From assembly GCA_052055015.1 (NCBI GenBank), contig JBQJIT010000069.1: a DNA stretch of 35,952 nucleotides; one strand, written 5' to 3'. Below the pieces are notes generated by a model. It did no database searches and was not told the DNA's origin. It was given only the letters and a program-made list of their open reading frames with translations. This stretch comes from Malassezia furfur (lineage: Eukaryota). The translations under genes and the position numbers were made by a program. Below, one piece after another: positions 7,496 through 35,613 of this stretch (positions are counted from its first letter, which is position 1; each line of letters opens with the position of its first letter).

Positions 7496-7581
7496 CCTGG
7501 TGGTGTGGAGGCCACGTGGCTAGGGTCCCAGGGCGAACATGCTGCTGCAGCCCGGGGCGGGGCCCTTACCTTCCCGCCAAC

Positions 7582-7896: not shown

Positions 7897-8118
7897 GCGG
7901 TGTGTGCCTCGAACCGAGCGCCTCGCTACGTAAAATTGTCCGGTAGAGTCCACAGTCTCGTTTGCGAGTTCTGCTCATCCTTTCGCGCCCGGCCACGGGG
8001 CAGTGCCACAGGACCCTTTTGTGGGGGGCTGTTCGGACCCGACCGAAGCTTCGCGCACCAACGTGGCCCGGGCGCATGTACGCCACGTGAGAAGTGGAGG
8101 CGGGTTTCATTGACCACC

Positions 8119-9652: not shown

Positions 9653-9736
9653 TTCGCCCGCGCGCAGCGGTGCGGTCCCACGACGTTCACGTGATTTTTT
9701 CTGTTGTCTTCTTGCGCGGTGCCATCGCTACCGGAG

Positions 9737-11224: not shown

Positions 11225-11318
11225 CTTCGGTAGCGATGGCACCGCGCAAGAAGACACGGACAAAAAAATCACGTGAATATACGCGGGGCGGCGCCGTGCC
11301 AGAGCTGGCTACGTACGG

Positions 11319-12861: not shown

Positions 12862-13083
12862 GGTGGTCTATGACACCCGCCTCCACTTTCCACGTGGCGA
12901 ACAGGCGCCCGGGCCACGTACGTGCGCGAAGGTTCGGGCCTGGCCCGATGCACCCCATACAGTCGCGACACGGGCCCGCCTGGACCGCATGCCGGGAATA
13001 GCGCGAGCAAGGCTCACAGGCCAGATGCAAGGACTTTACAGCACAGTCTATTCAGTATGTAGTACCATCACGGTACTAGTTAT

Positions 13084-13395
13084 TTACTGCTGCTCCTGAA
13101 GGCGGTTAAGCTCAGTCTCGAGCGCCTTGAGGAGCTCGTCGCGGTGCTGCGCAGTACCAATGCTCTCCTTGACTTTGCCGTGCTGGTTGATTTGGGTCAG
13201 GATCTTGTAGAGCTGGTCGTCCTCGAACGAGCCCGCCGAGTCACCCTTGTCGTGGTACTTGTCGTGCGCGGCCTGGAGACGGCTGACCTCCTTCTCGTAC
13301 GCAGGTACACCGCCCGACTTGACATGATCAATGATCTGCTGGAGCTGGGGGATGATCGCGCTGCGCGTCTCGGGGTCCAAATCGATGTTCACCAT
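13084..13395 (-). CDS. Small 103-aa Cdc37-N partial paralog (copy B)
   Basis: MVNIDLDPETRSAIIPQLQQIIDHVKSGGVPAYEKEVSRL..., intact, with mostly conservative changes versus copy A. Confidence 0.85.
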   Translation of the reverse strand: MVNIDLDPETRSAIIPQLQQIIDHVKSGGVPAYEKEVSRLQAAHDKYHDKGDSAGSFEDDQLYKILTQINQHGKVKESIGTAQHRDELLKALETELNRLQEQQ

Positions 13396-13483
13396 GTTGG
13401 CGGGAAGGTAGGCTGCCCGACTCCACGCTGCTGCTGCATTCGCCGCACTGTGGCGCTACGCACGTGGCCTCCACACCACCAGG

Positions 13484-15221
13484 ATGACCGACGCGCCGGC
13501 GCTGTACGCCGCCGTGTCGTACAAGAAGGTGCCGGGCACGCTCGTGCTGGGCGCCGACGGCGTCTTGAAATGGCAGCCGTCGAGCACCAATGCGACCGTT
13601 GGTGCATTTCAGGTGCGCGATATCCACCTGAAAGGCCTCAAGGTGTCCAAGCCTGGTGCGGCGCAAACGGCGCTTCGGCTCGAGGCCGAGCAGGGGCACC
13701 CCATCAATGGCGAAAATGCAGCGATGCTAACGTTCAATGCCGAGCAGGATGTCGCCGTGGCATCGCGCGAGCAGTTCAAAGACCGACTCGCCGCGGCCAT
13801 TGCCCGCGCGCGTACACAGACAGAAACCACGCGTGAAACGCCGAGCACGACGCCGGGAGCCGACGCATCCGAGGTGCGCCTGCGTGGTCAGGTGCTGCTG
13901 GCGAACCCCAGCCTGCTTGCCCTGCACAAAGAGGTGGTGGGCTCGGGTACCATTTCTGATGCCGACTTCTGGGCGCACCCCACCCGTGTTGCGCTGCTGC
14001 GGTCCGAGCGCGCCAAGATGCAGCAGCGCCAAGGACGGCGCGCGCAGCTGGCTGACCCGCGGCCGACCCAGGGCGAGTCGGGCGAGATGAAAATCAACAT
14101 CACTCCGCAGCTTATCCGCGAGCTGTTTGAACAATACCCCGTGCTGACCCGTACCTACAACGAAAACGTCCCTGAAAAGCTGAGTGAGAGCGCGTTTTGG
14201 TCGCGCTACTTTCAGTCAAAGTTATACCACCGGCTGCGCACGTCGCAGCGATCCGCGGCATCGGAGCAGACGCTGCGCGACGACCCGATTTTTGACCAGT
14301 ACTTGGAGGAGGAAGACGACGGTAGGTCGTGCCGCTGACCCAGGCTTGGAGCCACGCACGGCGTACAACCCCCACGACGCGCTGCTGAACCTCGAGTCTA
14401 CGGCCGAGGACCACGGCGAGACGGGCAATACACAGGACTGGACGATGCGGGCGGGCTATGACCGGCGCAACCTGCCGCTTGTCCGGCGCTTCAACAACCA
14501 CGCTAGCAGCCTGCTGCGCTCGTCGCTCGGCGAGCTGTCCGAGCAGGACGCACGGCGCGTGCGGCGCAAGACGGGCGGTGTCGACGAAGAGTACCCCACG
14601 GACGACGCAGGGGTGCCGTACTACGACCGCATCGTTGTGGACGATCTGAACGAGCATCAAACGCACAGCGGACGCCGGCTCGAGATCCACAACCAGCGCG
14701 CGTACTTTGATGCGGGCCTGGATGCGCAGCGTGCACAAGATACCCAGCAGCCGGACGTGCATGCGGCGATGGCAAAGTTCCACACCGAGCTTGGGCAGTG
14801 GACGCTGGATCTGCGCAACTTTGAGCCGACAGGCGCAACCATGCGGACGGCCCTGGACGCGATGCTGGACAACATGGAGCAGCAAAAGGAGCTGCACCCT
14901 GGCAACGCGATCCAGGAGCTGCCGCCGGACATTGCCAAGCAGCTGCTCGCGTGCCACGCGGCCACCGACGAGTTTCTGCAGCAGTTCTGGCAGGCGATCT
15001 CGCCGTCGGGCGACATGGCCAGCGCGCCACAGACACTGGCACAGCGTGCGGCCAAGGCGCGGCAAATGCTCGAGGTGCTTAGGCGCGCGCCCGTGCGTAT
15101 GCAGCGCATCGCGGAGGACGCCGAGGCGGCGCAGCCCGGCGTGGGCCATGCCTGTGTCGAGGCGGCGTTTAGTGCAACGCGGCAGGCCGTAGAGCGTGCG
15201 CTGCGCTACGGACAGGCCTAG
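13484..15221 (+). CDS. TFB1: TFIIH p62/Tfb1 (copy B)
   Basis: Homolog of 5755-7495, with a 22-nt intron at 14322-14343. Confidence 0.88.
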
Positions 15222-15231
15222 GTAGAGCACA

Positions 15232-17526
15232 CTACGAACGCGTCGAGCGCATCGCCTCTTCGAGCTGGCGCTTGTTCGACTCGACGATCACGCGCTTGTA
15301 CTCGGAGACGCTGCCGCGGAACTTGTACACGGTGCCGTTCTCGCACACCCACATCTCCTTGAGGCAGCTGTTGATGAAGCGCTCGTCGTGGCTGATCACG
15401 ATCACGCCGCCGTTCCAGCGGTTGATGGCATCGATCAGCGCATCAAGACCCTCAATGTCCAAGTGGTTCGTCGGCTCGTCGAGCAGCAGCACGTGCGGCT
15501 TCATCAGGCTCAGCTGCGCAAAGGCCACGCGGCTCTTTTGACCACCACTGAGCGTCGCAATCTTTTGCAGACCGGTGGTGCCCGTAATGCCGAACGAGCC
15601 GAGGTGCTGGCGGTACTCTTGCTCGGTGCGCCCGGGGAAGCGCGACGCAAGGAACGCCACGGCGTTCATCGTCAAGTCGAGCTGGTCGATGTGGTGCTGC
15701 GAGAAGTAGCCAATGCGCAGGCGCGAGTTGCGCTTCGCATCGCCCTCAAGCGGCGTGATCTGGTTCATGAGCAGCTTCATCAGTGTCGACTTGCCCGCGC
15801 CGTTGCTGCCGACGAGCGCGATGCGGCTGTCCATCGTGACGTCAAAGTTGACGTGGCGCAGCAGAATGCGGTCGCGCGAGTACCCAAACGTGACATTGTC
15901 CAGCTGCAGCAGGGGCGGGCTCAGCTTGTCCGTCTCTGGCAGCGTAAAGTGCTCGCCCGACTCCTTCTCGGGCGGCTCGAGCTCGGGGAGACGCTCGAGC
16001 TCCTTGATGCGGCTCTGCGCCTGCGTCGCGCGGTTCGCATTGTAGCGCCAGCGGTCGATGAACGCCTGGAGGTGCTGCCGCTTCGCCATGTTCGCCTCGT
16101 ACTCGCGCAGCTGGTTGCGGCGGCGCTCACCACGCGTCTCGTAGAACTGGTCAAAGTCGCCCTTGTAGTAGTCGAGGCGCTCCGAGTGCATGTGCACAAT
16201 GTCCGTCGCGACCTGGTTCAGGAACGCACGGTCGTGCGACACGACGAGCAGCGTGCCCTTCCACTCGTTCACAAGGTAGTCTTCGAGCCACGCAATCGCG
16301 TTCAGGTCAAGCATGTTGGACGGCTCATCCAGCATGAGCAGGTCCGGCTTGCAGAACAGCGCACGCGCCAGCGCAAGACGCATGCGCCAGCCACCGCTGA
16401 AGTGCTTCGTGGGCTTCTGCTGGTCGCTCCCAACAATGCCCAGACCGTTGAGCAGCGCCGCAGCACGGCTCGGACCCGTGTCGGCCTCCATCTCGACCAG
16501 CTTGGCCTGGATGTCGCCCAGCCGCGCCGACAGCTCGTCGCGCTCGTGCTCGCGCTGGCGCGTCGGCAGGTCGACGGCCGAGCCACGCGACAGGCCGTCC
16601 TGGCTCGACTCCTGCGCCGCCGCCGAGGCGGCCTGCGCAGCGTCCTCGAGCGCCTGAAGCTGCTCGTTGATGCGCGCCTCCTCCTGGAGCAAGCGCTCGC
16701 GCCAGACGTCGGCCTTGAGCACGGCCTGGACGGCAGGCGTGTCGTCGCCGACAATCTCCTGTTCGACGTACAGCAGCGAGACGTTGGTGGGAATCGGCAC
16801 GTCGCGCATCGCCATGTGCCGCAGCAGCGTACTTTTGCCCACACCGTTGCGGCCAATCAGACCGTAGCGACGACCGTACGCCATGGTGAGCTCGGCGTTG
16901 CTCAGGATGCGGTTGCTGCCGAAGCTCACGTCGATGTTCGGCAGGTGGATGTCCTTGTTCTTGCCCTTGGCCGCACCGGAGCTGATCGACTCGAGCGGGT
17001 TGACCTGCAGGTACATTTCCTCGTAGTTGGCCATCTTCTTGGCGTTTTCCACGAGCCGGCTCGACTGGTACAGATCGCGCTGCTCGCGCTTGGCGAGCTT
17101 GGCACGCGTCTTGGCCTCCTGGCGCTCGAGGCGCTTCACGTCGACCGTCGTGCCCTTGCGGTCGCTGCGGCCGAGCGCAAGGTCAAACGAGCCGGCGCCG
17201 GCGTCGTAGCGCGACGTCGAGCTCAGCGCACCCTCGCGCATGTCAATCACCTTGTCGAGACGCGTAAGTTTCTGGTGCTGCGCATCGTGCAAGGGCTGCC
17301 GCTCCGCGACGAGCGCACCGAGCTTCTCGAGCAGACCCGGAAGCGCCTCGCGCGCCTTGGACGTCGCTGGTTCACTCAGCACCGCAGACTCGAGCATGGG
17401 GCGCACAACCTCGTCCATTACCGACACCGACGGATCCTCGCCGGCATCCTCCACGGCATGGTCCAGATACTCTACAATCGGGTCGTCCAGCGAGGGAAAC
17501 GCCGCACGCACCAGCGCCGCGGCCAT
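15232..17526 (-). CDS. GCN20: Gcn20/ABCF3 (copy B), 764 aa
   Basis: About 99% protein identity to copy A, with a 3-aa C-terminal extension (TRS). Confidence 0.9.
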   Translation of the reverse strand: MAAALVRAAFPSLDDPIVEYLDHAVEDAGEDPSVSVMDEVVRPMLESAVLSEPATSKAREALPGLLEKLGALVAERQPLHDAQHQKLTRLDKVIDMREGALSSTSRYDAGAGSFDLALGRSDRKGTTVDVKRLERQEAKTRAKLAKREQRDLYQSSRLVENAKKMANYEEMYLQVNPLESISSGAAKGKNKDIHLPNIDVSFGSNRILSNAELTMAYGRRYGLIGRNGVGKSTLLRHMAMRDVPIPTNVSLLYVEQEIVGDDTPAVQAVLKADVWRERLLQEEARINEQLQALEDAAQAASAAAQESSQDGLSRGSAVDLPTRQREHERDELSARLGDIQAKLVEMEADTGPSRAAALLNGLGIVGSDQQKPTKHFSGGWRMRLALARALFCKPDLLMLDEPSNMLDLNAIAWLEDYLVNEWKGTLLVVSHDRAFLNQVATDIVHMHSERLDYYKGDFDQFYETRGERRRNQLREYEANMAKRQHLQAFIDRWRYNANRATQAQSRIKELERLPELEPPEKESGEHFTLPETDKLSPPLLQLDNVTFGYSRDRILLRHVNFDVTMDSRIALVGSNGAGKSTLMKLLMNQITPLEGDAKRNSRLRIGYFSQHHIDQLDLTMNAVAFLASRFPGRTEQEYRQHLGSFGITGTTGLQKIATLSGGQKSRVAFAQLSLMKPHVLLLDEPTNHLDIEGLDALIDAINRWNGGVIVISHDERFINSCLKEMWVCENGTVYKFRGSVSEYKRVIVESNKRQLEEAMRSTRS

Positions 17527-17556
17527 CGTAAAAAGAAGCCACGGCGTCGCATATGC

Positions 17557-19389
17557 TTAGTCAGCGCCCAGGCGCCGCAGATGGCGCGCTAGGCCCGGCA
17601 CAGACGCGCCGTCCACGCACTGGAGGCCCGCGCGTGTGCGCAGCAGGGCCTGGGCGACACGCGCCACCGCGGGGTCTACATCGTCGGGCACGTCCGCAGT
17701 CGCGTCACTGTGCCGCGGGTACTGCGCTCCGCACCGCAGCGGGCCGACGCTCAGCTCCGTGTACGCCTCCCACACGGCACATACAGCGCGCGGCGCGGGC
17801 ACATGCGCCTCGGGGTGCACGAGCGCCTCGGGGTGCAAAAAGAGCAGGTAGAGCGCATCGTAGCCGCCCGCTAAGGGTAAGTAAAGCCTCGCTCGCACAC
17901 GCACCTCCAGGGACACCGCCGCCCAGGACGCCGGGTGCGTCGCGGATCGTCGTGTCGATCAGGCGCGTCATTTCCATCGGCTCGACGGGCGCCGAGGCGC
18001 GTGTGCCCAGCTCGCGCATGCCCGCACGCACGGACCGCATCGAGTTGCGCACGTCGATAAACATGTCCGCCGTTAGCGACGGGTGCTCCTTCCGGTACGC
18101 GTCCCACTCGACCGACGAGCGCTGCGCAAACGCCTCGAGTACGTGCGCGTACTCTTCCGGGTCGCGCGCATGCGCAACGTGCAGGCCCAGCAGGCCATCG
18201 GCCAGCGACTGGTTCGCGGCGCCAAGCACGCGGAACAGCTGGGCGGCTGCGTTAGACATCGACATACCCCACTCGGGCTTGGTTTTTTGGAACGCGCTCA
18301 CCTGCCCCACCATGGTGCGCGTGTTGGAGCCCGCATCCACGTCCGCAAGGCACAGCCGCACGCCGGGCGGCAGCTGCAGCGGTGCGGGGCGCGCGACGTG
18401 TGCGTCGGCGTCGGCAGTGCGCGTGAGCTCCAGCAGCCCCTCGGCAGCGGTCGGCACACCACTCGCCCCCTGCGGCGCCGGCTGCCAGTGCGGGTTATGG
18501 GGGTCGAGCAGCGGGAGCAGGGGGACCGGCATGCGTGCGTCGTGCGCCGCCGTCTCGCCGGCGCGCAGCAGGCGGTAGCCGACCTCATCGCGCATCGCGT
18601 CCTTGATCAGTTTGGGATGGAAGCGGCGGTACAGCTGGCTGCCCCACACAGACGCCGACACGTCGAAGCCCGAGCCGAGCTTGCCCTGCGCGGCACAGTG
18701 CGCGAGCTGCGCCGTGTTGTGGATCAGACCGAGTGACGCAAGTGGCAGGGTGTGGTCCTCGCGCTCGCCGTCGACGATGCCAAGGTGCAGCAGCATGCCG
18801 CCCGTGAGCGACGTGGTCATCGCGGCGCTCGACCCGAGCCCCGTCTTGTGCACGTCGCCGAGCGTGCAGTGCTGCTCGGCGAACGGTTCGAGCGCGTCGA
18901 GCTGTGCAAGCGTCGGCGCTTGGCCCTGGGTGAGTGTGGGCAACGCACCTCGACACGGTGCGAGTAGTAGTCGTTGTCGCCCGCAATCACCACGTCGATG
19001 CCGCCACCCAGCGCATCGCGCAGCGCCGACACGCCGCGCTTCTCGATGCCGAGCTGCAGCGTATACAAGAGGGCAAAGGCCACAAAGGGATTCGCGCCGT
19101 TTGCGTCACTGCGTGAGTGCGTCACGTACGTCTGCACCAAGCGCACGTCCTCGGTGCGCGTCGCATCGTCGCCCGCGGGCAGCTGCACCGCGTACACCCA
19201 CTCGGCCGCGTCAAACTGCGGCGAGCGCACGCGGATCGCCGGCACGCTGTCGGGCTGTGCGGCGCGCGTCGCTACGCTCGTGTAAAAGCGTGCATCGGTC
19301 GCAAACACCACGCCAAAGTACGCGGGGTCGAGCACGAGGTAGCCGCCCGCAGCGAGCACCTTGCCCGGCGCCGACACGGTCGTGGTCAT
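17557..19389 (-). CDS. ERG8: Phosphomevalonate kinase (copy B)
   Basis: Same motifs and four intron positions as copy A. First intron at 19109-19129. Confidence 0.93.
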
Positions 19390-19432
19390 CGCGGCGTGCG
19401 TCGCTGAGTCAGCGACCTTCGTTTTCTCGACG

Positions 19433-20317
19433 ATGGCAGCGAGCGGTGCGGCGGACGCCGACGTGCAGACGGCCATCTACAAGAAGCTATACCCCGTCGA
19501 TTTCCTGCGCAGGCACCTTGAGGAGCAGGTCCGCGAGGATGGGCGCGCCCTCGACGAGTTTCGGCCCGTGTCGCTTGCGACGGGCATCCTGACGCAGGCC
19601 AACGGCAGTGCGCTCGTCCGCTTCGGCACGGGCACCATGGTCACCGCCGCGGTCCAGGCGCACATCGCCGAGCCGCACCACGACCGCCCGCACGAGGGCT
19701 TCGTCGTGCCAAGCATCGACCTCTCCCCGCTGTGCTCGCCGCAGTACCGCGCGGGGCCACCGGGCGACGAGGCGCAGGCGCTCGCACACTACCTCCAGCG
19801 CTTCCTGGACGAGTCGCGCGCGCTCCCGCGCGAGTCGCTGTGCATTGAGCCGGGAGTCGCGGTGTGGTGCGTGTACGTGGACCTCGTCGTGGTCAGCGAG
19901 GACGGCAACGTGCTCGATGCCGCGGCGCTCGCGGCCGTCGCCGCGCTCGCCGACGCACGGCTGCCGCGCGTGCTGCGCTGCGACGACGCGTCGGCGTGCG
20001 TGTGCACACGCGAGCGCACGGAAAAGCTCGCACTCGCGTACCTGCCCATGCTTGCAACGTTCGGGCTCGTGGATGCCACCTACCTGCTCGCCGACGTCAC
20101 CGCGTTCGAGGGCTCGCTCACCGCCGCGGCGACGCACATCGGCGTCGCAGACGCCGACGACGCCGACGCCGACGTCTTCTTCGTGCGGCACGCGGGCAAC
20201 GCGCTCGCTGCGCGCCCGCAGCTGCACAACCACGCGCTGCTCGAGCGCTGCATCGACGCGGCGCAGGCACGCGCGCGCGTGCTGCGCAAGCTGCTGCACG
20301 AATCGCTGAAGCAGTGA
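19433..20317 (+). CDS. RRP43: Rrp43/EXOSC8 (copy B)
   Basis: Intact homolog of 673-1557, same length. Confidence 0.85.
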   Translation: MAASGAADADVQTAIYKKLYPVDFLRRHLEEQVREDGRALDEFRPVSLATGILTQANGSALVRFGTGTMVTAAVQAHIAEPHHDRPHEGFVVPSIDLSPLCSPQYRAGPPGDEAQALAHYLQRFLDESRALPRESLCIEPGVAVWCVYVDLVVVSEDGNVLDAAALAAVAALADARLPRVLRCDDASACVCTRERTEKLALAYLPMLATFGLVDATYLLADVTAFEGSLTAAATHIGVADADDADADVFFVRHAGNALAARPQLHNHALLERCIDAAQARARVLRKLLHESLKQ

Positions 20318-20323
20318 TGATAC

Positions 20324-21860
20324 CTAACTATGCTCATACCCCGTAAACGCCCGCGCACGCTCTGCGTGTTAGTGACGTGCGCACCGCACAGCTGGAAGAC
20401 GCGCAGCCCGCTCTTGTTGCTCTTGAGCGCCATCGTGTACTTGCGCACCGTGTGTAGCAGGTCGTAACGCCGCGGTCCCGTCGTGGTCAAGAGCTGCGTC
20501 AGGCAGCACAACGCACCTGAGCGAGAATCGGCAGGCCCTGCTGTGTGAGCGCCACATCCACCAACAGTGGGCGCGCCCCGGCCCCATGCGCCGGCGCCGC
20601 AGGTGCACACAGCCGCTCGGCGAGCGCCATGCCCACAGACGTGTCGCTCACGCGCAGGATGACCTGCACGGCTTTGGCACCATACGGCGATAGGCACACG
20701 GTAGCGACATGACGCAGCAGCAGCTCCGCGACGCGGTCCTGCACGTCGCGGCTGCCGTGCTCGGCGAGGTGCTGGATCACCCACACCCCGTACTGGTCAC
20801 ACACACACTCGACAAAGTGCGTCAACAGCTCCGCGACGCATGCGCTCGACGCACCCACGAGGCCGCTGCGCAGCAGGTCCTGCACCAGCACACTGCCCAC
20901 TTCGTCCGTCGCGACCGCCAGCCACCGGCCCTGGAGGTGTGCTTGGACCGTGGCAGCGATGTGGGCACGCACCTCGGCATCCCACGGCAGCGTCCAGATC
21001 GTCTGCCACACGGGCGCCGCACTGGGGCGCAGCAGCGTCTGGGCCAGAGGCGTCTGCAGCAGCTCGTGCAGCACAGCGTAGCGCACGTCCGTGGCCACCT
21101 CGAGCACGCGCTGCACGACAAGCGCGCCATGGGCGGACAGCGCCAGGATCGCGAACGAGCCCTGCAGACGCCAGGCCAGGCTTGGCTCCCGGCCCAGTGC
21201 GCGGTGCACCACGAACCGGCCGTACGCGTCCGAGGCGAGAGGGATAAGCCGCCGCCGCACCGCCGGCACCACGTCCGGTGCGCGTGTGTCGTCCTTGAGG
21301 CAGTGCTGCAGCGCGATGCACGACGCTCCGTCATGTTGCACCAATACCTGGCGCACGAGCTCGGATGCGTCGACGACATCACGCGGCGGCATCGCCTCGG
21401 GCGGCGGATCGGGGACGCGGATGGCGCGCGCCCAGTCGATGCGCGACGGCGCACCGAACAGCGCACACTGCTCCTCAAACGACGTCCCAATCGTCGTCAT
21501 CTGGCGGTTCTGCAGCACTTTTTCGGGAAACGCATGCACCCCATATGGATGCATGCTGGGTGGAGCGTCGTCCCAAAACGGATTGAACTCGTCGGGCGTC
21601 TCGGCCCCGGAGCGCGGCGGCACGAGCACGCGCGGCACCGCACCGGCCGCTGCATCCTCCTCCAAACTCGCGATGCGTCGCTCCAGCGCAGTGAGACGGC
21701 GCTCCAGGCCCCCGGTACACGCCGACGCCCCTGGCCACGCGCGCGACTGGCTACTAGTGCTCGGCCATGTCGTTGGCGTCGACTCGGTCGCATAGCCACC
21801 GGGCGTCGCCTGCACGTCGAACCGGGGTGAGGGGCTCGGACTGGTGCCCGGGTCCGACAT
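20324..21860 (-). CDS. Pumilio/PUF-repeat-like protein, complete copy
   Basis: Disordered N-terminus with a short coiled coil (LERRLTALERRIASLEED), then about 8 PUF-like repeats (LASDAYGRFVVHRAL, LALSAHGALVVQRVLE, etc.). Two short 3' introns as in copy A. Confidence 0.7.
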
Positions 21861-24589: not shown

Positions 24590-25273
24590 CTAGCTGAGGC
24601 TCATGATCGCGTTGATCAGGTCGCCGTCCGACTCCTTCAGCGCCTTGACGGCCTTCCGGCGGGAGACGGACACCTGCTCCATAACGAGGTCGACGTCCTT
24701 CGAGTCCACACCGGTCTCGTCAATCGGCGCGCTGTCGTCCTCCTCCTCCTCCTCCTGCACCTTCTTCGACGAGGCCAGGTCCGCCGCGTTGAACTGCGGC
24801 TCGGTGCTGGCACCGTCCATACCCTTCTGCTGGGCCTCGGCCTGGAGGAGCTGCTGCGCAGCCTGGGCCTGCGCGAACGCGCTCATGTCCTCGTTCTTCA
24901 CCTCACCGAAGATGATGTACACGTCGGACACCGACGACTTGTACACGTCGGGGTTGCTCACAACGTACAGGTGCTGCGTTAGTTTGCGCGCACCAGAAAT
25001 ACTTACACCACGAGGGCGGCGCAGCGTCACGCGCTTGATGCCAGCCACGCGCTTCAGGCCAATGTTCTGCAGCGTCTTGCGGCTCTTGCGCTCCGCGCGC
25101 GACTGCACACGGTCGGGCACACCGACTTCCGTGTCGTTCTCATCCTGGGGGGCATCCTGGACCTGGATCTAAACGAGCAGAGGCACATTCGCACCATACG
25201 GTCAGCATCCTGAACTGCATCATGAAAAGAAACTCACGTCCTTCACGTCGTCCGTGATCTCCTCAATGGACAT
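24590..25273 (-). CDS. EGD2: Nascent polypeptide-associated complex alpha subunit
   Basis: MSIEEITD start, NAC domain (SRAERKSRK..GLKRVAGIKRVTLRRP..PDVYKS..YIIFGE), UBA-like tail (DVDLVMEQVSVSRRKAVKALKESDGDLINAIMSL). Introns 25169-25237 and 24974-25006. Confidence 0.93.
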
Positions 25274-25374
25274 GGTAGTGCGTTGGGGTAAAGCAACGCC
25301 AGCGACAACGATCGGTGCCGATTCGCGCTTCTTCGCCCATCCACTAAAACTGCACGCCGCAGCCGAAACCGGAT

Positions 25375-25389
25375 CACGTGGACCACGTG
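25375..25389. promoter_or_regulatory. Tandem CACGTG E-boxes in the divergent EGD2/ISA2 promoter
   Basis: CACGTG at 25375-25380 and 25384-25389. The same hexamer recurs near several other start codons. Confidence 0.45.
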
Positions 25390-25433
25390 GCATGGCACGA
25401 CCGTCGGTGGCGAATGTACCTGTCCACCTCACG

Positions 25434-26031
25434 ATGACCGCGGCGCGTCTCAGTATGCGTCGTGCGCTTCGGCTCGCCCAGCCGAGTCGCGGCTTCAGCA
25501 TGCGTACTCTTGTTGGTATGAATCTACCGCGCACAGCACAACAAAGCCCATATACCGCCACACCCTCCCGGGTACCTCGGCTAAGTCCGCTACGGCTGCG
25601 CACCATCTCGACCCTCGTGTCCAAGCCAGAGTACCCCGAAGATGAGTCAGTCCTGGAGGGCGACCCGCCCTTGGTGCACCTCACCAAGCGCGCAATTGCT
25701 AAGATCAAGGCAGTGGCGGAAAGTGACAACGATCCAAAGACGGCGCTGCGCATCATTGTCGAACCCGGAGGCTGTCACGGTTACATGTACAAGTTGGAAA
25801 TTACCAACAAATACGATGACGATGACTTGTACGTTCTGACTGACTAACAACAGCGTTTTCGAAGACAACGGGTCGCGTATTGTCGTGGACAGCTTCTCGC
25901 TCGCACTTGTCCGTGGAAGCACCATTGACTATGTCACAGAGCTGATCGGAAGCCAGTTCGCCATCAAAGACAACCCACAGGCCAAGGGAAGCGGCTGCGG
26001 GTGTGGCGTGAGCTGGGAGCCGATCATCTAA
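25434..26031 (+). CDS. ISA2: Mitochondrial A-type Fe-S cluster assembly protein (Isa2/ISCA2-like)
   Basis: Arg/Ser-rich presequence, LRIIVEPGGCHGYMY, TIDYVTELIGSQF, CGCGVSW. Intron 25829-25853. Start codon uncertain (25392 is also in frame). Confidence 0.82.
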
Positions 26032-26405: not shown

Positions 26406-29400
26406 ATGTCGGCGGAGAATCCAATAAAGGTACGCACCCTTGGTGTCTTGGGAAGCAAAGAATGTCGCTAACAACATGTTACAGTGGTTCAGCCACTGGT
26501 TTCAAAACGTATGTCGCCTTACGCGTCCGTCTTACGTTACAGCTCACCTCCGAGGGCCAACCGGCGCCTCCCAAGGCCTTGGAGGAAAAATATACCATGA
26601 CAGGCCAGACCCTTGGGTTTGGTACTTTTGCCGTCGTGCGCGTATGCGTGCACAAGGAGACCAATACGCGACGTGCCGTGAAGATCATTGCGCGGAAACC
26701 GCTTAGTGCTGGACAGGGGCACGAGGTGAACGTCGAGGTCCTTCCGGCACGGCAGGCGCGCGACGAAATCAAGATTTTGTTGAATTTGCACCATCCGAAC
26801 ATGTACGTCGTGGCGCGTGGGTGTGCTGACTGCCAGCCTCCGGCTTTGGGACGTCTTTGAAACCGAAGAGGCTCTGTTCATGATCACCGATTTGTGTGAG
26901 GGTGGCGAGTTGTTTGACAGCATTGTAAAGCGCGTGAGCTATAACGAGCACGATGCAGGGTTTGTCACACGCGAGATCCTGCGCGGCGTCGTGTATCTCC
27001 ATCAGAACAAGATCGTGCATCGCGACTTGAAGCCAGAAAATATTCTCCTAATGGCCAACAACAGCATTAACCATGTGCGTTGTCCCGCGCTCACCCAGAT
27101 CGTCATCTCCGACTTTGGATTGGCGAAAATTATGCCAGACGAGGGCATGCTGCTCACGGCGTGCGGTTCGCCGCAATACGTTGCACCCGAGGTGCTGCTT
27201 GGCGTGGGCTACAATGGGCTGGTGGATGTGTGGTCGGTGGGTGTGATTGTGTTTGCGCTGCTCTCGGGCTACACCCCATTCTACTCCACCGAGGTCCAGA
27301 CACTCTTTCAGAAGATTATTTCGTTCGATTACAAGTTTGACGAAAAGTACTGGTCGGACAAGAGCGATCTCGCAAAAGACTTTGTGCGGAAATGCCTGTG
27401 CGATCGGAGCCAGCGCATGACGGCGCAGGAGGCGCTTGAGCACCCGTGGATTGCGCAGATCGGCGCCTTGCACGACGACCACGAGCACATTCCACCACTC
27501 AAACGCGCCTTGGACAAGTCGGCGTCGGCCTCCAGGATCGACGATACCGACAATCTGGCCGTCCAGCTCGAGCGCATGGAGGAGATCAAGCGCGTGCGCA
27601 GCCAGCGGAACACAAGCTCGCCGGAGAGCGAGCAGCGCCTGGGTCGATTTTTACGAGACTTCAAAGATGAGCTAGATGGATTCTCGAAACGCACCCCGAC
27701 GCCGTCCGTGGACAAGGGCAAGTCGCGCGAGCAGCCCACGCCGCGGGTGTCGGATGCGGCCAAGCCCGTGCCCGGTAGTTCCAGCAAGGTCGCCAAGAGC
27801 GGCGAATCGCAGCGCGCGCCCCATTCGTACACGCGCCATTATATCCGCGAATCGACCTCTGGTTCGCAGCCGCAAAAGGAGACCAAAACCGCCGAGGTGC
27901 TCAACGAGCTGCTCGAGCACTACCGCACCGCGAAACGCCCCTCCTTCTCGCGTGTGGACCCGAGCATCGAGGTGAAGCCGAATAGCAGCACGACGCTGCA
28001 AAAGGCCGTCAAGATGGTGCCGACGCTGTTCAACCAGGGCCTGTCGATCGGCGGCATCATTGCATCGCACGCCATCTACGGGCCGCCCAAGAAGTCGTGG
28101 GGCGTCGAGATGTCGGTGCTCACCAAGACGATCCGTGAGATCTCCAAGCACACCGACTTGACGACGGTGCCGCTGCTGCAAAAGGTGTTTGACCTCGCAC
28201 GCTTCCTCCCCGTTCCCGAGGACGGCCTGGTGACGCCCGTCACCTTCCGCGTAAAGCGCCGCAACCTCCCGGGCATCCTCGCCGACGACGACGCGAAAGA
28301 GAACGGGAAACGCGAGCTGACCGGCGAGTGGATCGTCGGCAAGCAGACCTGGCGGCGTCTACAGGGCGAGTGGCAGTCGGGCAAGCGCTCGGGCAAGGAG
28401 CGCGTCATCCTCTATATCCACGGCGGCGCCTACTTTGTCATGTCGGCCATCACACACCGGCCGCTGACCATTGCGCTGAGCAAGTACTGCGAATGCCGTG
28501 TGTTCTGCATCAACTACCGCCTCGCGCCCGACTCCATTTTCCCCGGAGCGCTGCTCGACTGCGTCGCTGCGTGGTTCCGCCTGACGGACGACCTACACAT
28601 CCCGCCGGCCAACATTGTGCTCGCGGCCGACAGCGCGGGCGGCGGTCTGGCGATTGCGCTCATGATGTACCTGCGTGACAACAAGTTTGCCATGCCCGGC
28701 GGCGCCATCCTCTTTAGCCCGTGGGTCGACCTGACGCTGTCGTGCGACTCGTGGGAGACGAACAAAGACTTTGACTACCTGCCGCGGCCCAACAACGGCG
28801 ACCACATGCACCCCGTCGCGGCCTACCTGGGCCCCAACTTTGACAAGTACCTCACACACCCGTACGTGAGTCCCTTGTTCGGGGACATGCACGGTCTTCC
28901 ACCGCTCCTGATCCAGACGGGCGATGCAGAGGTGTTGCGCGACGAAAACATCCTGTTCGCCCACAAGTGCACGCTCGCGGGTGTGCCTGTGCGCCACGAG
29001 ATCTACGAGGACTGCGTGCACGTCTTCCAGTTCTTCCTGTTCCTTGACGCGAGCCGCAAGGCGCTCCAGAGCGCACGCCACTTCATGCGCACGGCGCTCG
29101 ACAAGCGGCCCAAGCGCCAGGCGACCAAGGTCACCGAAGACACCCGCGAGCAGCTCAACACCGAGATGAGCGGCGGCATGAACAACGCGCAAGGCCAAAA
29201 GGTGGACTCGACCACGGGCACGCCCTCCGTGCAAGTGGCCACGCCCGAGGAGGAGCACGACCACGTCACACTCAAGAACTACGGACCCACCGACGACGAC
29301 GAAGAGGACTGGGCGCTCGACAGCAACAGCGATACCGACAAGGACGAAGGCGAGATTAATCTGCCGCGCGACCCCTCCTTGCTGGCCGCCAAGAAGGCGG

Positions 29401-29552
29401 AAGGCGCGCCCGACGCCGGCGCAGCCGACGCCGGCGCGTCGCCATCCAAGGCGCCCAAGGACAAAGCGCCACAGGACAGCCAGGCCGAGGCGCCATCCGA
29501 CAGCCAGGCTGCGTCCGACGCGCCGCCCTCGTCCAAGGCCGAGCAGAGCTAG
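26406..29552 (+). CDS. CAMK-group Ser/Thr kinase fused to an HSL-family (abhydrolase_3) lipase/esterase
   Basis: Kinase motifs LGFGTFAVV, AVKII, GGELFD, HRDLKPEN, DFG, ACGSPQYVAPE, DVWSVG, HPW. The same stop-free frame continues to HGGA, NYRLAP, ADSAGGG, SPWVDL, GDAEVLRDE, HVFQ. Four introns in the kinase half, the last at 27075-27098. Confidence 0.85.
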
Positions 29553-29696: not shown

Positions 29697-30310
29697 TTAC
29701 TTGGGGATGTCCTGCTCGGGGATCGGCTTCTCACCCGACACAGGGAGCACCGGCTCGTTGTCGTGCAAGTAGCCCTTGCCGTAGAAGGTGAGCACACCCA
29801 CGGCGCTGCCGAGACCGGCACCGCCAAGCATGCCCGTAATGAGACCCACGCGGCGCACTGTGGTAAGCACTCGGCACATACGGAAGAGGGCAGGGAGCGT
29901 CAGCGCACCCACGACACTGCCAATCAGCTGGTAGTCGTCACGACGCGCCTGTAGGTCAGACACCGGAAGAAATTACGTACGCGCACCACGTCCAGACGCG
30001 AGTCGCTCACGCGGCGGGCCAGCACGGCCGGCGAGAGCTGCGAGCCCTCGACCCAGCCACCGGCGCCACCGATCACGGCACCAATCAGCGGGACGGCGAT
30101 GCTGTGTGAGTCGCGGGACCTACTTGTAGCGGGCAAGACCGCGCAGGCGGAACGAGCCCTTGCGAAGCGCGTGCACCAAGTAGGTCGGCGTCGCGGCGAC
30201 GCTGGCAACCTGGGCGCCTGTACATTAGTACACATGCACGTACCAAGCAGGCTGCGGAACGCGATGAGATACGACTGATCTTCTTGGTTGTGAACCGACG
30301 TGAAGGCCAT
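29697..30310 (-). CDS. Small Gly-rich multi-pass membrane protein of unknown function
   Basis: Four GT-AG introns with CTRAC-like branch points give a continuous ~165-aa frame from MAFTSVHNQEDQ to PEQDIPK*, with hydrophobic GxxxG helices (VPLIGAVIGGAGGW, GMLGGAGLGSAVG). Confidence 0.7.
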
Positions 30311-30496
30311 CGTTGCAATCAGGAATTCGCCGCTCGCCGGGGACGGCCTTGCATCGCACGTCCCCCTGCCCAGGTTAATCACGTGCGCGGACTGCGGGGC
30401 CCGGCACGAAGATCGCCCGCAAGCGGCGCGCGCGCAGCATAGCCCGGTTGTGCGCAGCCAGGATGTTGTGGCTATGGAGGGGAAATAGAGGACATA

Positions 30497-30914
30497 CTAC
30501 ACGACAATGAGCTGCGTTAGTGGACGGGTCGGGACAATGTACCTTGCGCATAGCAATAAACACGGTGATCATCAGCGTGAACCTGGAGGGGTTAGGGCCT
30601 GGCACGTACAGGAAGCTCGCATACGCGTTCGACGACAGATCCTTGGAGTCCTTCATGGGCGCATGCGGCTTGATGTTGATGATCTGTGCAACGCCGAGCA
30701 TCACCGCGAGGGACGTCACGTCAGGGAAGGGCGAGATGATCGACATCGACGCAAGCAGACTGCGTCAGCGTAGCGACACCTACGTAATGCCACTCAGGAG
30801 CGTCTCGTACGTGAGGCTCTCGTCCTTGATCCAGGCCACAGGCATCGTCAAGGGACGCACTGCGCCCGCGTTGCGGGGGTCCGTCTTGTCGACACGCCGC
30901 GCCAACGTCGCCAT
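30497..30914 (-). CDS. Asterix/PAT10 (UPF0139)-like small ER membrane protein
   Basis: Three short introns give ~110 aa: MATLARRVDKTDPRNAGAVRP..., three hydrophobic segments, ending MRKLIVV*. The N-terminal DPR motif and topology resemble Asterix. Confidence 0.55.
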
Positions 30915-30976
30915 GGTGGGTGGAGGAGTGCTGACGTAAACCGTGGCCGCCGCACGGCCGCTCGACGTGCACGACG

Positions 30977-33900
30977 ATGCTGGCGTACCCCGCGCGGTTG
31001 CTCTTCGGCGAAGACACCGCCAAGCATGTGTTCAAAACGTCCAAGGAGAGCGGTATTCCGCGCCTGTATAGCGAGCGGCACATCGCCGCCGCCGATCACC
31101 GGTACTGGGTGCAGTTCACCACGGTGTTCGACTCGGCGGAAGACATGTGCGCGACGCTCACCGTCCCGGAGCTACGGCGCGCCGCCGATGAGGCACCGGA
31201 GAACATTGTGACCCTCGTTGAGGTGCTCACGCTGCACCTCGAGAGTCTGGTGGACGACACAAACTTTGCGCCTGTGCCGCCGTACAACCCCGGCGGATTC
31301 AGCGCGTTGTTCGCGAGCACCGCGCCGCCGCGGCCCGTCGATGCGCGCAACCGCGTGCGCGAGGCACTCAACTGCTGCCGTGTGCTGATGCGCGTCGTCC
31401 CCGTGATTTACGAAAGCACGCCTCGGAAACGCGAGGACAGCGACATTGAAGACCTCGAGCAGCGCACGCTGTGGACGCCGCTGCCGCGCACGCGTTTCCT
31501 GCGCAACGAGCGCGGCCGGCCGTCGCCCACCAAGGAGGCGCCCGAGGAGGAGGCAGACGGCAAGGCAAACGACCAATTCATCATCTCGGACGGCGACGAG
31601 GGCGACCTGTCGATGCAGGACCCCCTCGCGGCCACAGCGTCGGGGCGCGGCGCCGACGGCGCGAGCGAGCAGGTGATGACGGGCCACGCGCTCCTCAACA
31701 CGCTGCTGGACCTGCTCTTCCACTCGGGCTTCACGATGCCGTGGACCGACGAACAGCTCAACTCGACGACGAGCAACGACATCAGCCGCGTGCACTTTAC
31801 CATTTGGGAGTCGGGCATTGGGTGCACCGTCGACCTGCAAGGCACCACGTCGCGGCACCTCGACCACCGCATCGAGGTGCTCCGCCTGCTCGTTGCGCTG
31901 CTGTCCAAGCCCATCTACACGGCGCCCGACGAGCCGCGCGCGGGGCAGCAAAACGCGCGCGAGTACGTCGCGTGTGCGCTCGAGCGCCCCGTGGTGCTGT
32001 CGTTCCTGTGCAGCCTGCTCAACACGGTGGCCAACTACAGCCAGGGCGACCACTGGATGCCGCTCACGTCGGCGGCCGACCCGCAGCGCGACGCGCTCAC
32101 CTCGCTGTGCCTCCAGACGCTCTGTGTGCTGCTCACCTACGAGCCGCCGGACACGAGCGGGCTGGGCGGCGCCGAGCAGCGCAACCTGTTCCTGTTCTAC
32201 ATGACGAAGCTGTACCGTGTGAGCGACTTTGCGTTCCTCGCGACCGGCACCGCCAAAATGTTCCAGCTCGCCATGGCACACACGCGCGGGCCGTTTGAGC
32301 TGGGCGCGGCGTCGGGCAGCCTGTTTGCCAAGGCGTGCGAAGAGCACGTCTCCGAGATCCTCGTGATCCTCTGGCTCCTGCTGCGCCACAACGCGCACTT
32401 CCGCAACTACATCGTCGGCAACCGCCAGCTGAGCCTCGACATGCTTTCGTGGCTGCTGTACGTCGCGCTCACCAACAAGGACGCGCCGCCGTCCTTGGCA
32501 CAGGCCCAGCTCGCCCTGTTTGTGCTGCAGGACCTCACGAGCGACCGCACCTTCTGCGTGCACCTCACGAGCCTGCAGAGCGCCGCGGACCTCACCGTGC
32601 CGGCGCGCCTCTTGCGACCGTCGGGCACGGTCGCGATGGACGCGCTGATCGAGAGCGTGTTTCTGCTGCTCACACGCAGCGCAGGGCTCATGGCGCCCAT
32701 GTACACGGCGCTGCTGCTCATCCTCGACAACACCGCACCGTTCTGGCGCAATCTCTCGCTGTCGTCCGCCGCGCGCCTCGAGCAGATGCTGCTGCAGCTC
32801 GCTTCGCCGCGGTTCCTGCTCGCCAGCGAGCACCACCCGCAGCTCATCGCGATCCTGCTCGACGCATTCACGCGCATGGTGCGTGACCAGTTTACCACGA
32901 ACGCCAACGTCGTGTACATCCTCGTGCGCGCTGCGCCGGTCATCGAGCGGCTCCAGGCACAGACGTTCCCAGAGGCACTCGAGTACGTCCACAAGCAGCG
33001 CGAGCGCGCGCGCGGTGAGGCAGCCCAGGCCGACACGGCCAAGCAGCTACCGAGCGTGCCGTCCGAGACTCCGGCGCACGCCGACGCGCGCAGCGAGGCG
33101 GAAACGGCGCCGACCGACAGCACAGACAGCCCAGCGGGCGCGCCGGCCAAGACCGAGGCAGCGAGCAAAGAGCCAGACGCGCCTGTGCCCACGGCGTCTG
33201 AGCCACTCGGCGTGGACGAACGCGATGCGCCGAGCAGCGGTGATGCAGGGCCGCTCAGCACCGAGCAGCACGACGCGCCCAGCACCGATGCGGGGGTAGA
33301 GCCGCACGAAGCGCCGGGCCAAAAGGCAGCAGCGCCCGAGGCGACGCCCGCCCAGCAGGCCGTAGCGCCCGAGGCGACGCCCGCCGCTCAGACCGACGCG
33401 CCTGAAGCAACGTCCGCCCAGCAGGCAGCAGCCTCCGAGACGACGCCCGCCGCCAAGGCCGACGCGCCCAAAGCGGCGCCCGCCCAGCCGGCAGCAGCAC
33501 CCAAGGAGGCCACGGCCACGGCGGCCCCCGGCGCTGCATCCGCCGCGGCGGCCCCGTCGAGCGACGCCGCAGCGACGCCCAATGCCGCCCTCGAGGAGAT
33601 CGCACGCATGGTCGGCAAGAACGGATTCGTGCCGACCGCCGCATGGTTCGACGCATGGCACCGTGCGCTGGATGTACGCACGCTTCGTGCCGTGCTCGAT
33701 GACCTGGTGCCGCGCGTGAATGCATTCTGTGCCCAGCCGGAAGTGACGAACAGCAACAACCCCCACGACCGCGTGCTGGCGTTCCTGCGCGAGCAAAAGC
33801 CCGCCGAGGCGGCGCTGCAGCCGACCGAGCTCTGTACGTCGAGCGCGTACTCACCCAGTGGCGCACCCGTTCATGTGGACGGCACAGAGCAGCATGTGGC

Positions 33901-34187
33901 TCGCAAGCTACGTATTCGGCCTCGTATTCCTGTCGGGACTCCGCGTGTACGTAACCCAGCACTGACGCAGGGGGCTCTTTACCGAAACCCACGCGAAGCT
34001 CTTCGAGATCCGCTACGAGGCGCCGCGCGAGACGACGGGCAGCCGTGTCCTGGACGCGATGGCGTCCATCACCTCGGGGCTCCTGGCGCAGGTGCCCATG
34101 CTCGGCGGCGGGGAGCGTGCGGCGGCACCGTCTACGCAGACCGACACACACGGTACGCCGCCCACGACGCAACCCACAAAACCGTGA
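30977..34187 (+). CDS. HID1: HID1/Ecm30 family Golgi protein
   Basis: REALNCCRVLMRVVPVIYE, DLLFHSGFT, IWESGIG, RIEVLRLL, GFVPTAAWFDAW. After two 3' introns (starting 33835 and 33947) the frame gives HPFMW...LFTETHAKLFEI, stop TGA 34185-34187. Confidence 0.82.
33326..33511 (+). repeat. Coding minisatellite, ~5.5 x 33 bp (11-aa AxAPEATPAxQ units) inside HID1
   Basis: Units include gcagcagcgcccgaggcgacgcccgcccagcag, gccgtagcgcccgaggcgacgcccgccgctcag and accgacgcgcctgaagcaacgtccgcccagcag. Confidence 0.8.
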
Positions 34188-35613
34188 GGCCTGCCGCCGA
34201 GAGGGTGTCACGCAGGATGCGCTGCTGCCGTAGCTCGGTGCGCCGCGCCGTCGCATAGCCCATGTTCGAAAAGGTCACCATCTCGTACAGGCTCTTCCAC
34301 GCGCCAGCAGGCAGCGTGCGCGACAGCACGCCGTCAAGCCACTTGCGCAGCTGGTAGTCGCGGCGGACGACCTTGCTGCGCATCTCGGTGTAGTTCTCCT
34401 GCGCGAGCAACTGGATCGCACGCACGTCGGCAGAGCGCCGCGCCGTGTAGTTCTGCAGCGCCGCGCCTTTGGCATCGGGCAGCTTGCCGTGCGCCGCGAG
34501 CGCCGCGTCCAGCTCCTCGAAAAAGATGCGCACGTCCTCGAGGCCGCAGTTGAGGCCCTGCCCGTAGAACGGCACCATGCCGTGCGCCGCATCGCCCAGA
34601 AACACGACCGACGACCCCGCGTGCATCGGCGAGCACTGCACGCTCCCGAGCGAGCTCGGCGTGCGCGACGTGAGGTGCTCGACCAGCTCATCCTCGTCCA
34701 TCACCGCGAGCGCGTCGGGGAAGTTGGCGCGGAAAAAGGCAAGCACAGACGCCTTGTCCCGGCAGTGCTCGGCAAACACGCGGAACGGCGCAAACAGCGT
34801 CGAGGTAAACGACCCGTCGACGTTCGGCAGCGCAATCAGCATGTAGTCGTGCCGCGGCCAGATGTGCAGGCACGACACAGACAGCTGCCACGCGGGCGAC
34901 GCGGTGTCGGACGGGCCCGGCGGCACACGCAGCTCGACGTAGCCCGAGTCGATGTACTCTTGCACGGTGTTGATGCGCGCGAGCGGCGCGATCCGCGTCC
35001 GCACCGCCGAGTGCACGCCGTCGCACGCGGCCACAAGCGCATAGGTGGCACTGGCGTCAGCACACGGCATACGTACCTCACCGGATCCATGCGGTCGGGC
35101 ACACGGAACACGAGCTGGACCTCGCCGTCGTCCCGCGCACGGTGCACATGCACGAGCGTGTGCTGAAAGTAGAGGTGCACATGGGGGTGATCGGCGGCCT
35201 TCTGGAGCAGCATCCAGTTCAGCTTGGCGCGCTCAAACGAGTAGATGCACTGCGTCAGCATTCGCACCTACCTCGCCCTTGGTGCTGTACGGCTGCCGGT
35301 CGAGATGGACGTGGCCGTCGGCGTCGGTGACGTGGATCATGCGCGCCGACATCGGCACCGCCTCGGACAGCACCTTGTCGGCGATCGACGGGTGCCGCTG
35401 GTCGCCCTCGCCGCCCACGGCACGCAGCGCCGTAATGCCGCGCACGGACACGGCCAGGTTGATGCTCCGCTGCGTCGCCGTGGGCTGCTTCGTGAACGCC
35501 GACTCGGGCTGGCTCTCGTACAGCGCCACATCAAAGCCACGCTCCGCAAACCCGATCGCCGTCAAGCAGCCTACGGGGCCTGCGCCCACCACCGCAACCG
35601 TGTGAGGCGCCAT
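34132..35613 (-). CDS. BNA4: Kynurenine 3-monooxygenase
   Basis: VAVVGAGPVG FAD motif, RSINLAVSVRG, ACDGVHSAVR, LHIWPR..MLIALPN, LGDAAHGMVPFYGQGLNCGLED, NYTEMRSKV, LYEMVTFS, C-terminal hydrophobic anchor. Two short introns. Confidence 0.92.

Follow-up and report, generated by a model that had tools for sequence, protein, structure and literature searches.

A CaMKI-like protein kinase and an HSL-family esterase encoded in one frame in Malassezia furfur and its Ustilaginomycotina relatives

We analysed a stretch of 35,952 nucleotides of Malassezia furfur DNA (contig JBQJIT010000069.1 of assembly GCA_052055015.1; hereafter "the window"), a GC-rich fungal sequence (56-71% GC), and focus here on a plus-strand gene at 26406-29552 in which a CaMKI-like Ser/Thr kinase, a variable linker of about 135 residues and an HSL-family (Abhydrolase_3) esterase follow one another in a single predicted protein. 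The gene comprises 4 exons, and its joined coding sequence (CDS) of 3024 nt holds 1007 codons with the terminal stop as the sole stop (Table 1). An earlier sequence-only reading of this DNA had proposed a protein kinase fused in one frame to a lipase/esterase. Pfam searches with Pkinase and Abhydrolase_3 find both domains where that reading had placed them, and every motif that it listed is present; in the 1007-residue protein these are GFGTFA at 41-46, AVK at 61-63, HRD at 164-166, DFG at 195-197 and APE at 219-221 in the kinase, and HGG at 631, ADSAG at 700-704, AEVLRD at 800 and VHVF at 830 in the esterase. The description "in one frame" holds for exon 4, a single exon at 26837-29552 that runs continuously through both domains inside a stop-to-stop frame of 922 codons (26784-29552), but it does not hold for the beginning of the gene, where three short GT..AG introns all lie within the first 431 nt. 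In the 904-residue product of 26838-29552, Pkinase covers residues 2-205 (E 6.5e-53) and Abhydrolase_3 covers residues 524-731 (E 4.6e-45). The WFSHWF/AFRSWF motif near the N-terminus is also found in M. yamatoensis and in smut orthologs. The closest named relative of the protein is that of M. brasiliensis, with 89% identity across the query. A transmembrane anchor was considered and ruled out: the top 19-residue hydropathy is 1.74, located in the kinase and esterase cores.

Table 1. Exons, introns, domains and motifs of the kinase-esterase gene, in window coordinates
Feature	Coordinates	Strand	Remarks
Exon 1	26406..26429	+	ATG, MSAENPIK; N-terminus like the M. brasiliensis model (MSASENP); joined CDS in frame
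Intron 1	26430..26484	+	55 nt, GTACGC...TACAG
Exon 2	26485..26508	+	Micro-exon WFSHWFQN; conserved AFRSWF-type N-terminal motif
Intron 2	26509..26542	+	34 nt, GTATGT...TTACAG
Exon 3	26543..26802	+	Kinase N-lobe; Pkinase profile positions 3-59
Gly loop GFGTFA	26615-26632	+	In exon 3
AVK lysine	26681-26683	+	In exon 3
Intron 3	26803..26836	+	34 nt, GTACGT..GCTGAC..CAG; divides an Ile codon; joined HHPN-I-LRLWDV agrees with orthologs
Exon 4	26837..29552	+	Remaining kinase (two thirds), linker, esterase and tail; stop codon 29550-29552
Kinase C-terminal part	26838..27452	+	Pfam; HRD 27018-27026, DFG 27111-27119, end at HPWI
Activation-loop Thr	27156-27158	+	In the kinase C-terminal part
Post-kinase segment	27453..27623	+	Site of the CaMKI autoinhibitory/calmodulin-binding helix; degenerate, net charge -2
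Variable linker	27624..27857	+	Ser/Thr/Pro/Lys-rich (31% S+T+P, 21% K+R); no Pfam match at E up to 10
Esterase N-terminal extension	27858..28169	+	Conserved LNELLEHY..SRVDP..VPTLFNQGLSIGG..YGPPKKSWGVEMS; also in stand-alone basidiomycete esterases
HSL-family (family IV) alpha/beta-hydrolase, cap and core	28170..29117	+	Abhydrolase_3; solved relatives
Oxyanion motif HGGA	28419..28430	+	Aligns to EstD11 HGGG 74-77
Nucleophile elbow ADSAG	28626..28640	+	Ser 28632-28634 aligns to EstD11 Ser144
Putative catalytic acid Glu (E of DAEVLRDE)	28929..28931	+	Aligns to EstD11 Glu238
Putative catalytic His (in VHVFQ)	29019..29021	+	Aligns to EstD11 His268
C-terminal tail	29118..29549	+	Acidic, Ser/Pro-rich, 22% D+E; no Pfam match

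The kinase and esterase halves form one continuous coding frame. When the 561-nt linker was shuffled by mononucleotides, 113 of 20000 shuffles were stop-free, and its remaining two plus-strand frames contain 2 and 3 stops. GC content at third codon positions (GC3) is 0.82 in the linker, 0.71 in the exon-4 part of the kinase and 0.89 in the esterase, compared with 0.58-0.60 at any position in the flanking intergenic DNA. As had been supposed, the linker appears to contain no intron: the sole pattern match in 27350-28150, at 28135-28346, falls within protein sequence conserved in all relatives and was rejected. A sequencing error hiding a stop, which the sequence-only reading had named as a way for its proposal to fail, is excluded, because the same unbroken frame is found in P0003, which comes from another assembly and is 98% identical, and in M. 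brasiliensis (P0004, 89%). In related genomes, where a look had been recommended, orthologs are fused, Tilletia (below) excepted, and all 6 related loci on metagenome contigs are open across the junction, the 4 complete ones each as one stop-free frame of 910-925 codons from kinase through esterase and the 2 truncated ones still open at the contig end. Between loci L002 and L003, the linker carries 24 non-synonymous and 21 synonymous differences; the ratio of non-synonymous to synonymous rates (dN/dS) of 0.30 (Fisher p 2e-4) indicates that it is translated and constrained. Because L003 and L005 give identical linker numbers against L002, these two may be one lineage. In the same L002-L003 pair the kinase-like domain has a dN/dS of 0.19 and the esterase one of 0.036, and among fused orthologs across the subphylum identity to the window is 75-99% in the esterase, 55-92% in the kinase and 9-76% in the linker. 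In M. sympodialis, record SHO78107.1 (P0249, 934 residues) is one model with Pkinase at 35-297 and Abhydrolase_3 at 603-810. We infer that this record derives from the M. sympodialis annotation of PMC5389616, which is described there as drawing on RNA-seq, peptides and manual curation and whose naming rule fits the record's name.

These data also bear on the idea that the fusion is an artefact, two neighbouring genes having been joined through a fault of assembly or sequencing or through a habit of gene prediction, which we regard as extremely improbable. Gene models in this genus do get merged, as in the NCBI models of M. vespertilionis and M. caprae, which wrongly add an upstream iron-sulfur (Fe-S) gene. 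However, the continuity is seen in the raw open reading frames of the window, of the independent 98%-identical assembly and of all six metagenome loci, and 68 fused clusters are spread across three fungal classes. The artefact explanation is thus effectively refuted.

The closest solved relatives of the kinase half are CaMKI-type enzymes: the top PDB matches are human CaMK1D, CaMK1 and CaMK1G (E 4.8e-55 to 3.8e-53), with CaMKIV next (5.8e-50). Yeast Cmk1 and Cmk2 are likewise placed in the CaMKI family. An ESM Atlas search returned only generic kinase clusters with scores of 0.84-0.85 and was uninformative. Like CaMKI, the window kinase retains the catalytic Lys, HRD, DFG, APE and the activation-loop Thr; the first four are the same in all 26 fused orthologs that were aligned, a set that leaves aside those Malassezia clusters in which the kinase catalytic motifs have been lost. 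In the activation loop, LLTACGSPQYVAPEV of the window aligns to MSTACGTPGYVAPEV of CaMK1D (LLTACGSPQY versus MSTACGTPGY), and the Thr is at the CaMKK site (Thr177 of CaMKI). The window protein differs from CaMKI in being fused to an esterase, in having lost the basic regulatory helix and in carrying an 8-residue insert before DFG, present in M. brasiliensis and M. yamatoensis as well. Over 205 residues, kinase identity between the window and M. brasiliensis is 92%; in the linker, identity is 70-76%.

The loss of the regulatory helix bears on the Ca2+ link that the sequence-only reading had drawn for this protein. In smut orthologs the likeness to CaMKI extends into the regulatory segment: the Sporisorium ortholog aligns to CaMK1D across it (RKLRKAVTAVEAVNHLQRLH versus KWRQAFNATAVVRHMRKLH). 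This basic helix (consensus RKLRKAVTAVEAVNHLQRLH) is kept in 20/20 non-Malassezia fused orthologs, where its net charge is +3 to +6, and is unrecognisable in 6/6 Malassezia, where the net charge is 0 to -4. In the window, the alignment to CaMK1D ends with the kinase domain, the regulatory helix is not recognised, and a hand count of the post-kinase segment gives a net charge of -2. Because the CaMKI-type helix has been lost in Malassezia and in the window, a Ca2+/calmodulin link of the window protein is doubtful, and this part of the sequence-only reading is not supported for M. furfur.

The esterase half matches PF07859 (Abhydrolase_3) at 154.4 bits, against a cut-off of 25, over profile positions 1-209 of 210, and its best solved relatives are family IV/HSL-family esterases (E 3e-46 to 3e-43), among them EstD11 (PDB 7at0/7at3), Est8 and EstE5-type enzymes. 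As given in PMC7905190, EstD11 uses the triad Ser144/Glu238/His268 and the oxyanion motif HGGG at 74-77. Aligned to it residue for residue, the window protein has a putative triad Ser702-Glu801-His831 with the oxyanion motif HGGA. The HGG, Ser, Glu and His are invariant in 26/26 fused orthologs, and the full HGGA is found in 25 of them. At the nucleophile elbow the window Ser aligns to EstD11 Ser144 and D-S-A-G is retained, the first Gly being replaced by Ala; ADSAG is the form in 24/26 fused orthologs and GDSAG in 2/26, the first Gly is also Ala in Tilletia, and all 6 outgroup esterases have GDSAG. Both halves of the protein thus keep their predicted catalytic residues in this species. The window enzyme differs from the family IV esterases in being eukaryotic and part of a 1007-residue protein, in having ADSAG rather than GDSAG and HGGA rather than HGGG, and in having about 100 extra conserved residues ahead of the cap, before the alignment to solved esterases begins (Est2 chain 5-309 aligns from query residue 91). 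This N-terminal extension, which is fungal-specific, is common to the fused proteins and to stand-alone basidiomycete esterases. Beyond these domains, Pfam gave no further family, whether for the whole protein (E up to 0.01) or for the 240 residues before the esterase (E up to 10).

The naming of this half as an HSL/Say1-type esterase stands as a family assignment, to family IV/HSL by sequence, and does not appear to extend to orthology with mammalian HSL or yeast Say1. PF10340, the Say1/Mug180 steryl acetyl hydrolase family, does match at 45.9 bits against a cut-off of 21, although over profile positions 119-239 of 374 only, and this match underlies the far stronger Abhydrolase_3 match; we read it as a clan-level resemblance, not as Say1 orthology. 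HSL can be phosphorylated by CaMKII. The window enzyme shares with mammalian LIPE the catalytic superfamily (the HSL family), and control by Ser/Thr kinases is a known feature of that lipase. It differs in that the kinases acting on HSL are separate proteins, whereas the window kinase lies in the same polypeptide. Pfam searches did not find an HSL_N domain in the window protein, and no regulatory-module insertion is seen, the alignment to bacterial esterases of about 300 residues being continuous and without a large insert. By these sequence features the window esterase is not an ortholog of LIPE.

Also close to the window enzyme are the stand-alone esterases of other basidiomycetes (for example in Coprinopsis, Rhodotorula and Mixia, under record names such as esterase or acetyl-hydrolase), which have the same module and N-terminal extension at 42-51% full-length identity and which, together with a split pair in Tilletia described below, provide the outgroup and sister lineages in our trees. 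They differ in lacking the kinase, in having the canonical GDSAG (the 6/6 outgroup sequences above) and in keeping a C-terminal motif, SHPD..L...(F/W)......T.V(W/Y). This motif is also present in Tilletia and in the smut fused proteins, and is absent from all Malassezia proteins aligned, whose tails end sooner. None of these stand-alone esterases appears to have been characterised.

The fused architecture extends well beyond M. furfur. The best 120 matches to the exon-4 product comprise 68 sequences with both domains, 7 Tilletia esterases and 45 esterases of other basidiomycetes. Fused forms occur in Malassezia (brasiliensis, yamatoensis, vespertilionis, caprae, cuniculi and sp. CBS 17886, as well as pachydermatis and sympodialis), in Ustilaginomycetes (Ustilago, Sporisorium, Moesziomyces, Pseudozyma, Melanopsichium, Thecaphora, Testicularia and Kalmanozyma) and in Exobasidiomycetes (Exobasidium, Meira, Jaminaea, Ceraceosorus, Tilletiaria and Pseudomicrostroma); in basidiomycetes beyond this group the esterase stands alone among these best 120 matches. 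Judged from these sequences, the fusion has been kept throughout Ustilaginomycotina, plant smuts included. The expectation that fungal kinases and esterases of these types are separate proteins is therefore correct outside this one subphylum, but within it fusion is the rule (68/120 best matches), and the suggestion that the fusion is special to a lipid-dependent yeast does not survive its presence in plant smuts. Among the best 150 results of a HMMER search over 1.84 billion representatives, fused forms make up 5 clusters, of this lineage only. Candidates for independent fusions elsewhere in life were rejected, since all 16 long multi-stretch matches are tandem kinases without Abhydrolase_3 by Pfam. 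On these two results, the fusion appears to have arisen once.

Automatic record names already hint at the architecture ("related to calmodulin-dependent protein kinase", "serine/threonine protein kinase/acetyl esterase/lipase"). No description of a fusion between kinase and esterase in these fungi came to light in the literature, in a search that did not extend to the supplement of the fungal kinome paper PMC2838846; in the main text of that paper the words hydrolase, lipase and esterase are absent, and the U. maydis Lip3 paper mentions no kinase. The sequence-only reading had allowed that the architecture might prove to be already widespread and described; it is widespread, but no description was found. 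The architecture is real, conserved and uncharacterised.

In Tilletia the two halves are encoded apart. The stand-alone kinases (P0123-P0126; 433-445 residues, 51-53% identity) are the top four matches and retain a post-kinase regulatory segment, and the stand-alone esterases (P0070-P0076) have about 1040-1110 residues. In three assemblies the locus tags of kinase and esterase differ by 446, 617 and 1035, so that the genes do not adjoin each other. The kinase tree, from which P0001 (without an N-lobe) and the chimeric models P0009 and P0019 were omitted, nests the Tilletia kinases with fused Exobasidiomycete kinases in a clade of 10 rows supported at 99/99. Tilletia is likewise nested in a larger, quick esterase tree (Shimodaira-Hasegawa-like approximate likelihood ratio test, SH-aLRT, 94), and Tilletiales and Georgefischeriales belong to one class in the NCBI taxonomy. 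Two results speak against a split within this lineage: a more careful esterase tree is a polytomy, and by the approximately unbiased (AU) test a monophyletic group of fused kinases is not rejected (p 0.09, for a group that was named after the tree had been seen). A secondary split in Tilletia is therefore favoured by the tree positions rather than shown by them. Whichever direction Tilletia took, the kinase-esterase pair behaves, as far as these comparisons go, as a composite (Rosetta-stone) gene.

Two further fused kinase-esterases, different from each other, come from records labelled as the fern Adiantum nelumboides (P0066 and P0424), whose contigs measure 103 kb and 1.2 Mb. In the esterase tree, P0066 lies among Exobasidiomycete sequences; P0424 is in a 90% cluster with a sequence adjoining Meira; both are probably fungal contigs within a plant assembly.

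Based on these findings, we propose that the gene encodes a single cytosolic or peripheral 1007-residue kinase-esterase with a linker of disordered appearance, and that its kinase domain is a built-in regulator of the esterase. As a whole we consider this the best explanation, and we hold it with moderate confidence. By Rosetta-stone logic, the kinase and esterase activities would be functionally coupled, the kinase domain most likely serving as the regulator. Its targets could be the linker or the extension preceding the esterase, phosphorylated within one molecule (in cis) or between molecules (in trans), and/or it could act through an allosteric, non-catalytic contact with the esterase; some such contact would be needed in the lineages with predicted pseudokinases. 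Mammalian HSL, switched by separate kinases, would offer a parallel, with PKA acting at Ser563/Ser660 and AMPK at Ser565 as listed in PMC8698496. In the smuts, the switch would probably be operated by Ca2+/calmodulin, because the CaMKI-type regulatory helix is retained there. In Malassezia, including the window, the helix has decayed, and the kinase would probably be independent of calmodulin and governed, if at all, by the conserved activation-loop Thr. That the kinase regulates the esterase in cis is something we purely infer.

Several observations weigh against this proposal, some concerning catalysis by the kinase domain and others the unity of the product. A scan for conserved R/K-x-x-S/T sites gave four columns only, three of them inside the folded esterase module; with so few columns passing, mostly in folded regions, conserved CaMK-type phosphosites were dropped as evidence. 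The HRD Asp has been replaced in four Malassezia clusters (HMN in P0021 and P0023, NLN in P0022, HTN in P0026, the last a cluster of 542 member sequences), which indicates that kinase catalysis is dispensable in part of the genus. DFG is altered as well in P0021 (DFC), P0023 (DFF) and P0026 (DFY) and is retained in P0022; the Gly loop of P0021, P0023 and P0026 reads GFD(A/T)FS; and a fifth Malassezia cluster, P0063, has DFA. The Malassezia kinase branches are also long, with up to 2.38 changes per column, and the esterase branches are short. In these predicted pseudokinases, the frame is open, every esterase motif is kept and the kinase-like domain has a dN/dS of 0.19-0.22, a sign of purifying selection. 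Since some Malassezia lineages carry a catalytically dead kinase domain, phospho-signalling would not be its universal role; what stands of that part of the sequence-only reading is that the kinase motifs of the window are intact.

One could suppose from this that the kinase domain of Malassezia, M. furfur included, has lost any kinase function of consequence and is a structural, pseudokinase-like module which positions, stabilises or allosterically gates the esterase, the intact motifs of the window being an undecayed remnant. The loss of the regulatory helix in the genus (6/6), the replaced motifs in five clusters, the continued purifying selection on the kinase-like domain and the long kinase branches are consistent with such a module. 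Nevertheless, we think it unlikely. The window and its nearest relatives (P0003, P0004, P0005 and P0006) keep Lys, HRD, DFG, APE and the activation-loop Thr, and the higher identity to M. brasiliensis in the kinase than in the linker (92% versus 70-76%) points to constraint on the catalytic domain.

The points against a single product begin with Tilletia, which shows that each half can exist alone. The M. obtusa NCBI model P0243 (496 residues) begins at an equivalent internal Met (MKAVPTLFNQG), and the gene is not listed in the one supplement of PMC5389616 that was examined. These would fit separate products made besides or instead of the fusion, a kinase-only form by early polyadenylation and/or an esterase-only form begun at an internal ATG, for instance that at 28014, acting mostly as independent enzymes; the linker is, in keeping with this, the least conserved part of the protein. 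We judge such separate products to be quite improbable. No in-frame stop separates the domains in the window or in any of the six metagenome loci, and the linker has a coding-like GC3 and the low dN/dS given above. A product starting at 28014 would lose the LNELLEHY..SRVDP block that is conserved in fused and stand-alone esterases, which makes P0243 look like a truncated model, and the M. sympodialis record, named by the rule of the curated annotation, is a single fused model.

Extending our proposal of a built-in regulator across the subphylum, we can tentatively suggest, as a speculative reading with a rather low chance of being right in full, that the kinase or kinase-like domain is a dedicated switch of an intracellular lipid esterase, ancestrally coupled to Ca2+/calmodulin and rewired to allosteric gating in Malassezia. 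The rewiring would have involved loss of the calmodulin helix throughout the genus and loss of kinase catalysis in some lineages, and it might relate to the dependence of the genus on external lipids.

The gene lies between an upstream plus-strand gene at 25173-25847, with a weak Pfam match to Fe-S cluster biosynthesis (HesB/ISA-like; 22.5 bits, below the cut-off of 26.3), and a downstream plus-strand gene of the Hid1/Dymeclin family at 30977-34258 (E 6e-107). The Fe-S gene is upstream in 6/6 metagenome loci and Hid1 downstream in 4/4. Three public models from relatives have apparent annotation errors: P0009 (M. vespertilionis) and P0019 (M. caprae) merge the Fe-S gene with the kinase, and P0243 (M. 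obtusa) covers the esterase only. In the 1.4 kb between the kinase-esterase gene and the Hid1 gene, the minus strand carries a conserved multi-exon gene at 29733-30920, with tblastx matches to four related loci (E 1e-48 to 1e-57) and a codon-like GC periodicity. Its blocks lie at about 29733-29858, 29883-29960, 29975-30121, 30126-30221, 30603-30761 and 30810-30920, and no Pfam family was found for any of them.

Elsewhere in the window, positions 1-20989 form a giant diverged palindrome with arms at 1-10461 and 10493-20989, a 31-nt spacer and a centre near 10477. The left arm runs past the window start, so these coordinates describe the portion within the window. The arms are 84-94% complementary over 13 ungapped blocks that reach a length of 2628 nt (at 92%). 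A raw-read fold-back artefact is unlikely, because the long ungapped blocks carry 8-16% substitutions; the palindrome may be a real inverted segmental duplication or a head-to-head joining of homeologous copies. Each arm has one match to the C/D-box small nucleolar RNA (snoRNA) Z13/snr52, at 10119-10227 (+) and 10728-10836 (-), with 52.7 and 53.7 bits against a gathering score of 47.

A fusion retained by every sampled class of a subphylum, and one that would have come apart again in a single genus, argues strongly on comparative grounds for joint action of a CaMKI-type kinase and an HSL-family esterase. Control of lipases by kinases in animals acts in trans, and the hard-wired pairing found here could make a compact system in which to study the control of alpha/beta-hydrolases by phosphorylation or by a kinase fold. 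Nature appears to provide a graded series for this purpose: calmodulin-type forms in the smuts, a helix-less form with intact catalytic motifs in the window, and pseudokinase forms in other Malassezia. For the biology of Malassezia, the gene adds an uncharacterised esterase, predicted to be intracellular, in which conservation of the catalytic core far exceeds that of the attached kinase. If the kinase is indeed a built-in switch, this protein would be the first known case of a lipase-type enzyme with a regulatory kinase of its own.

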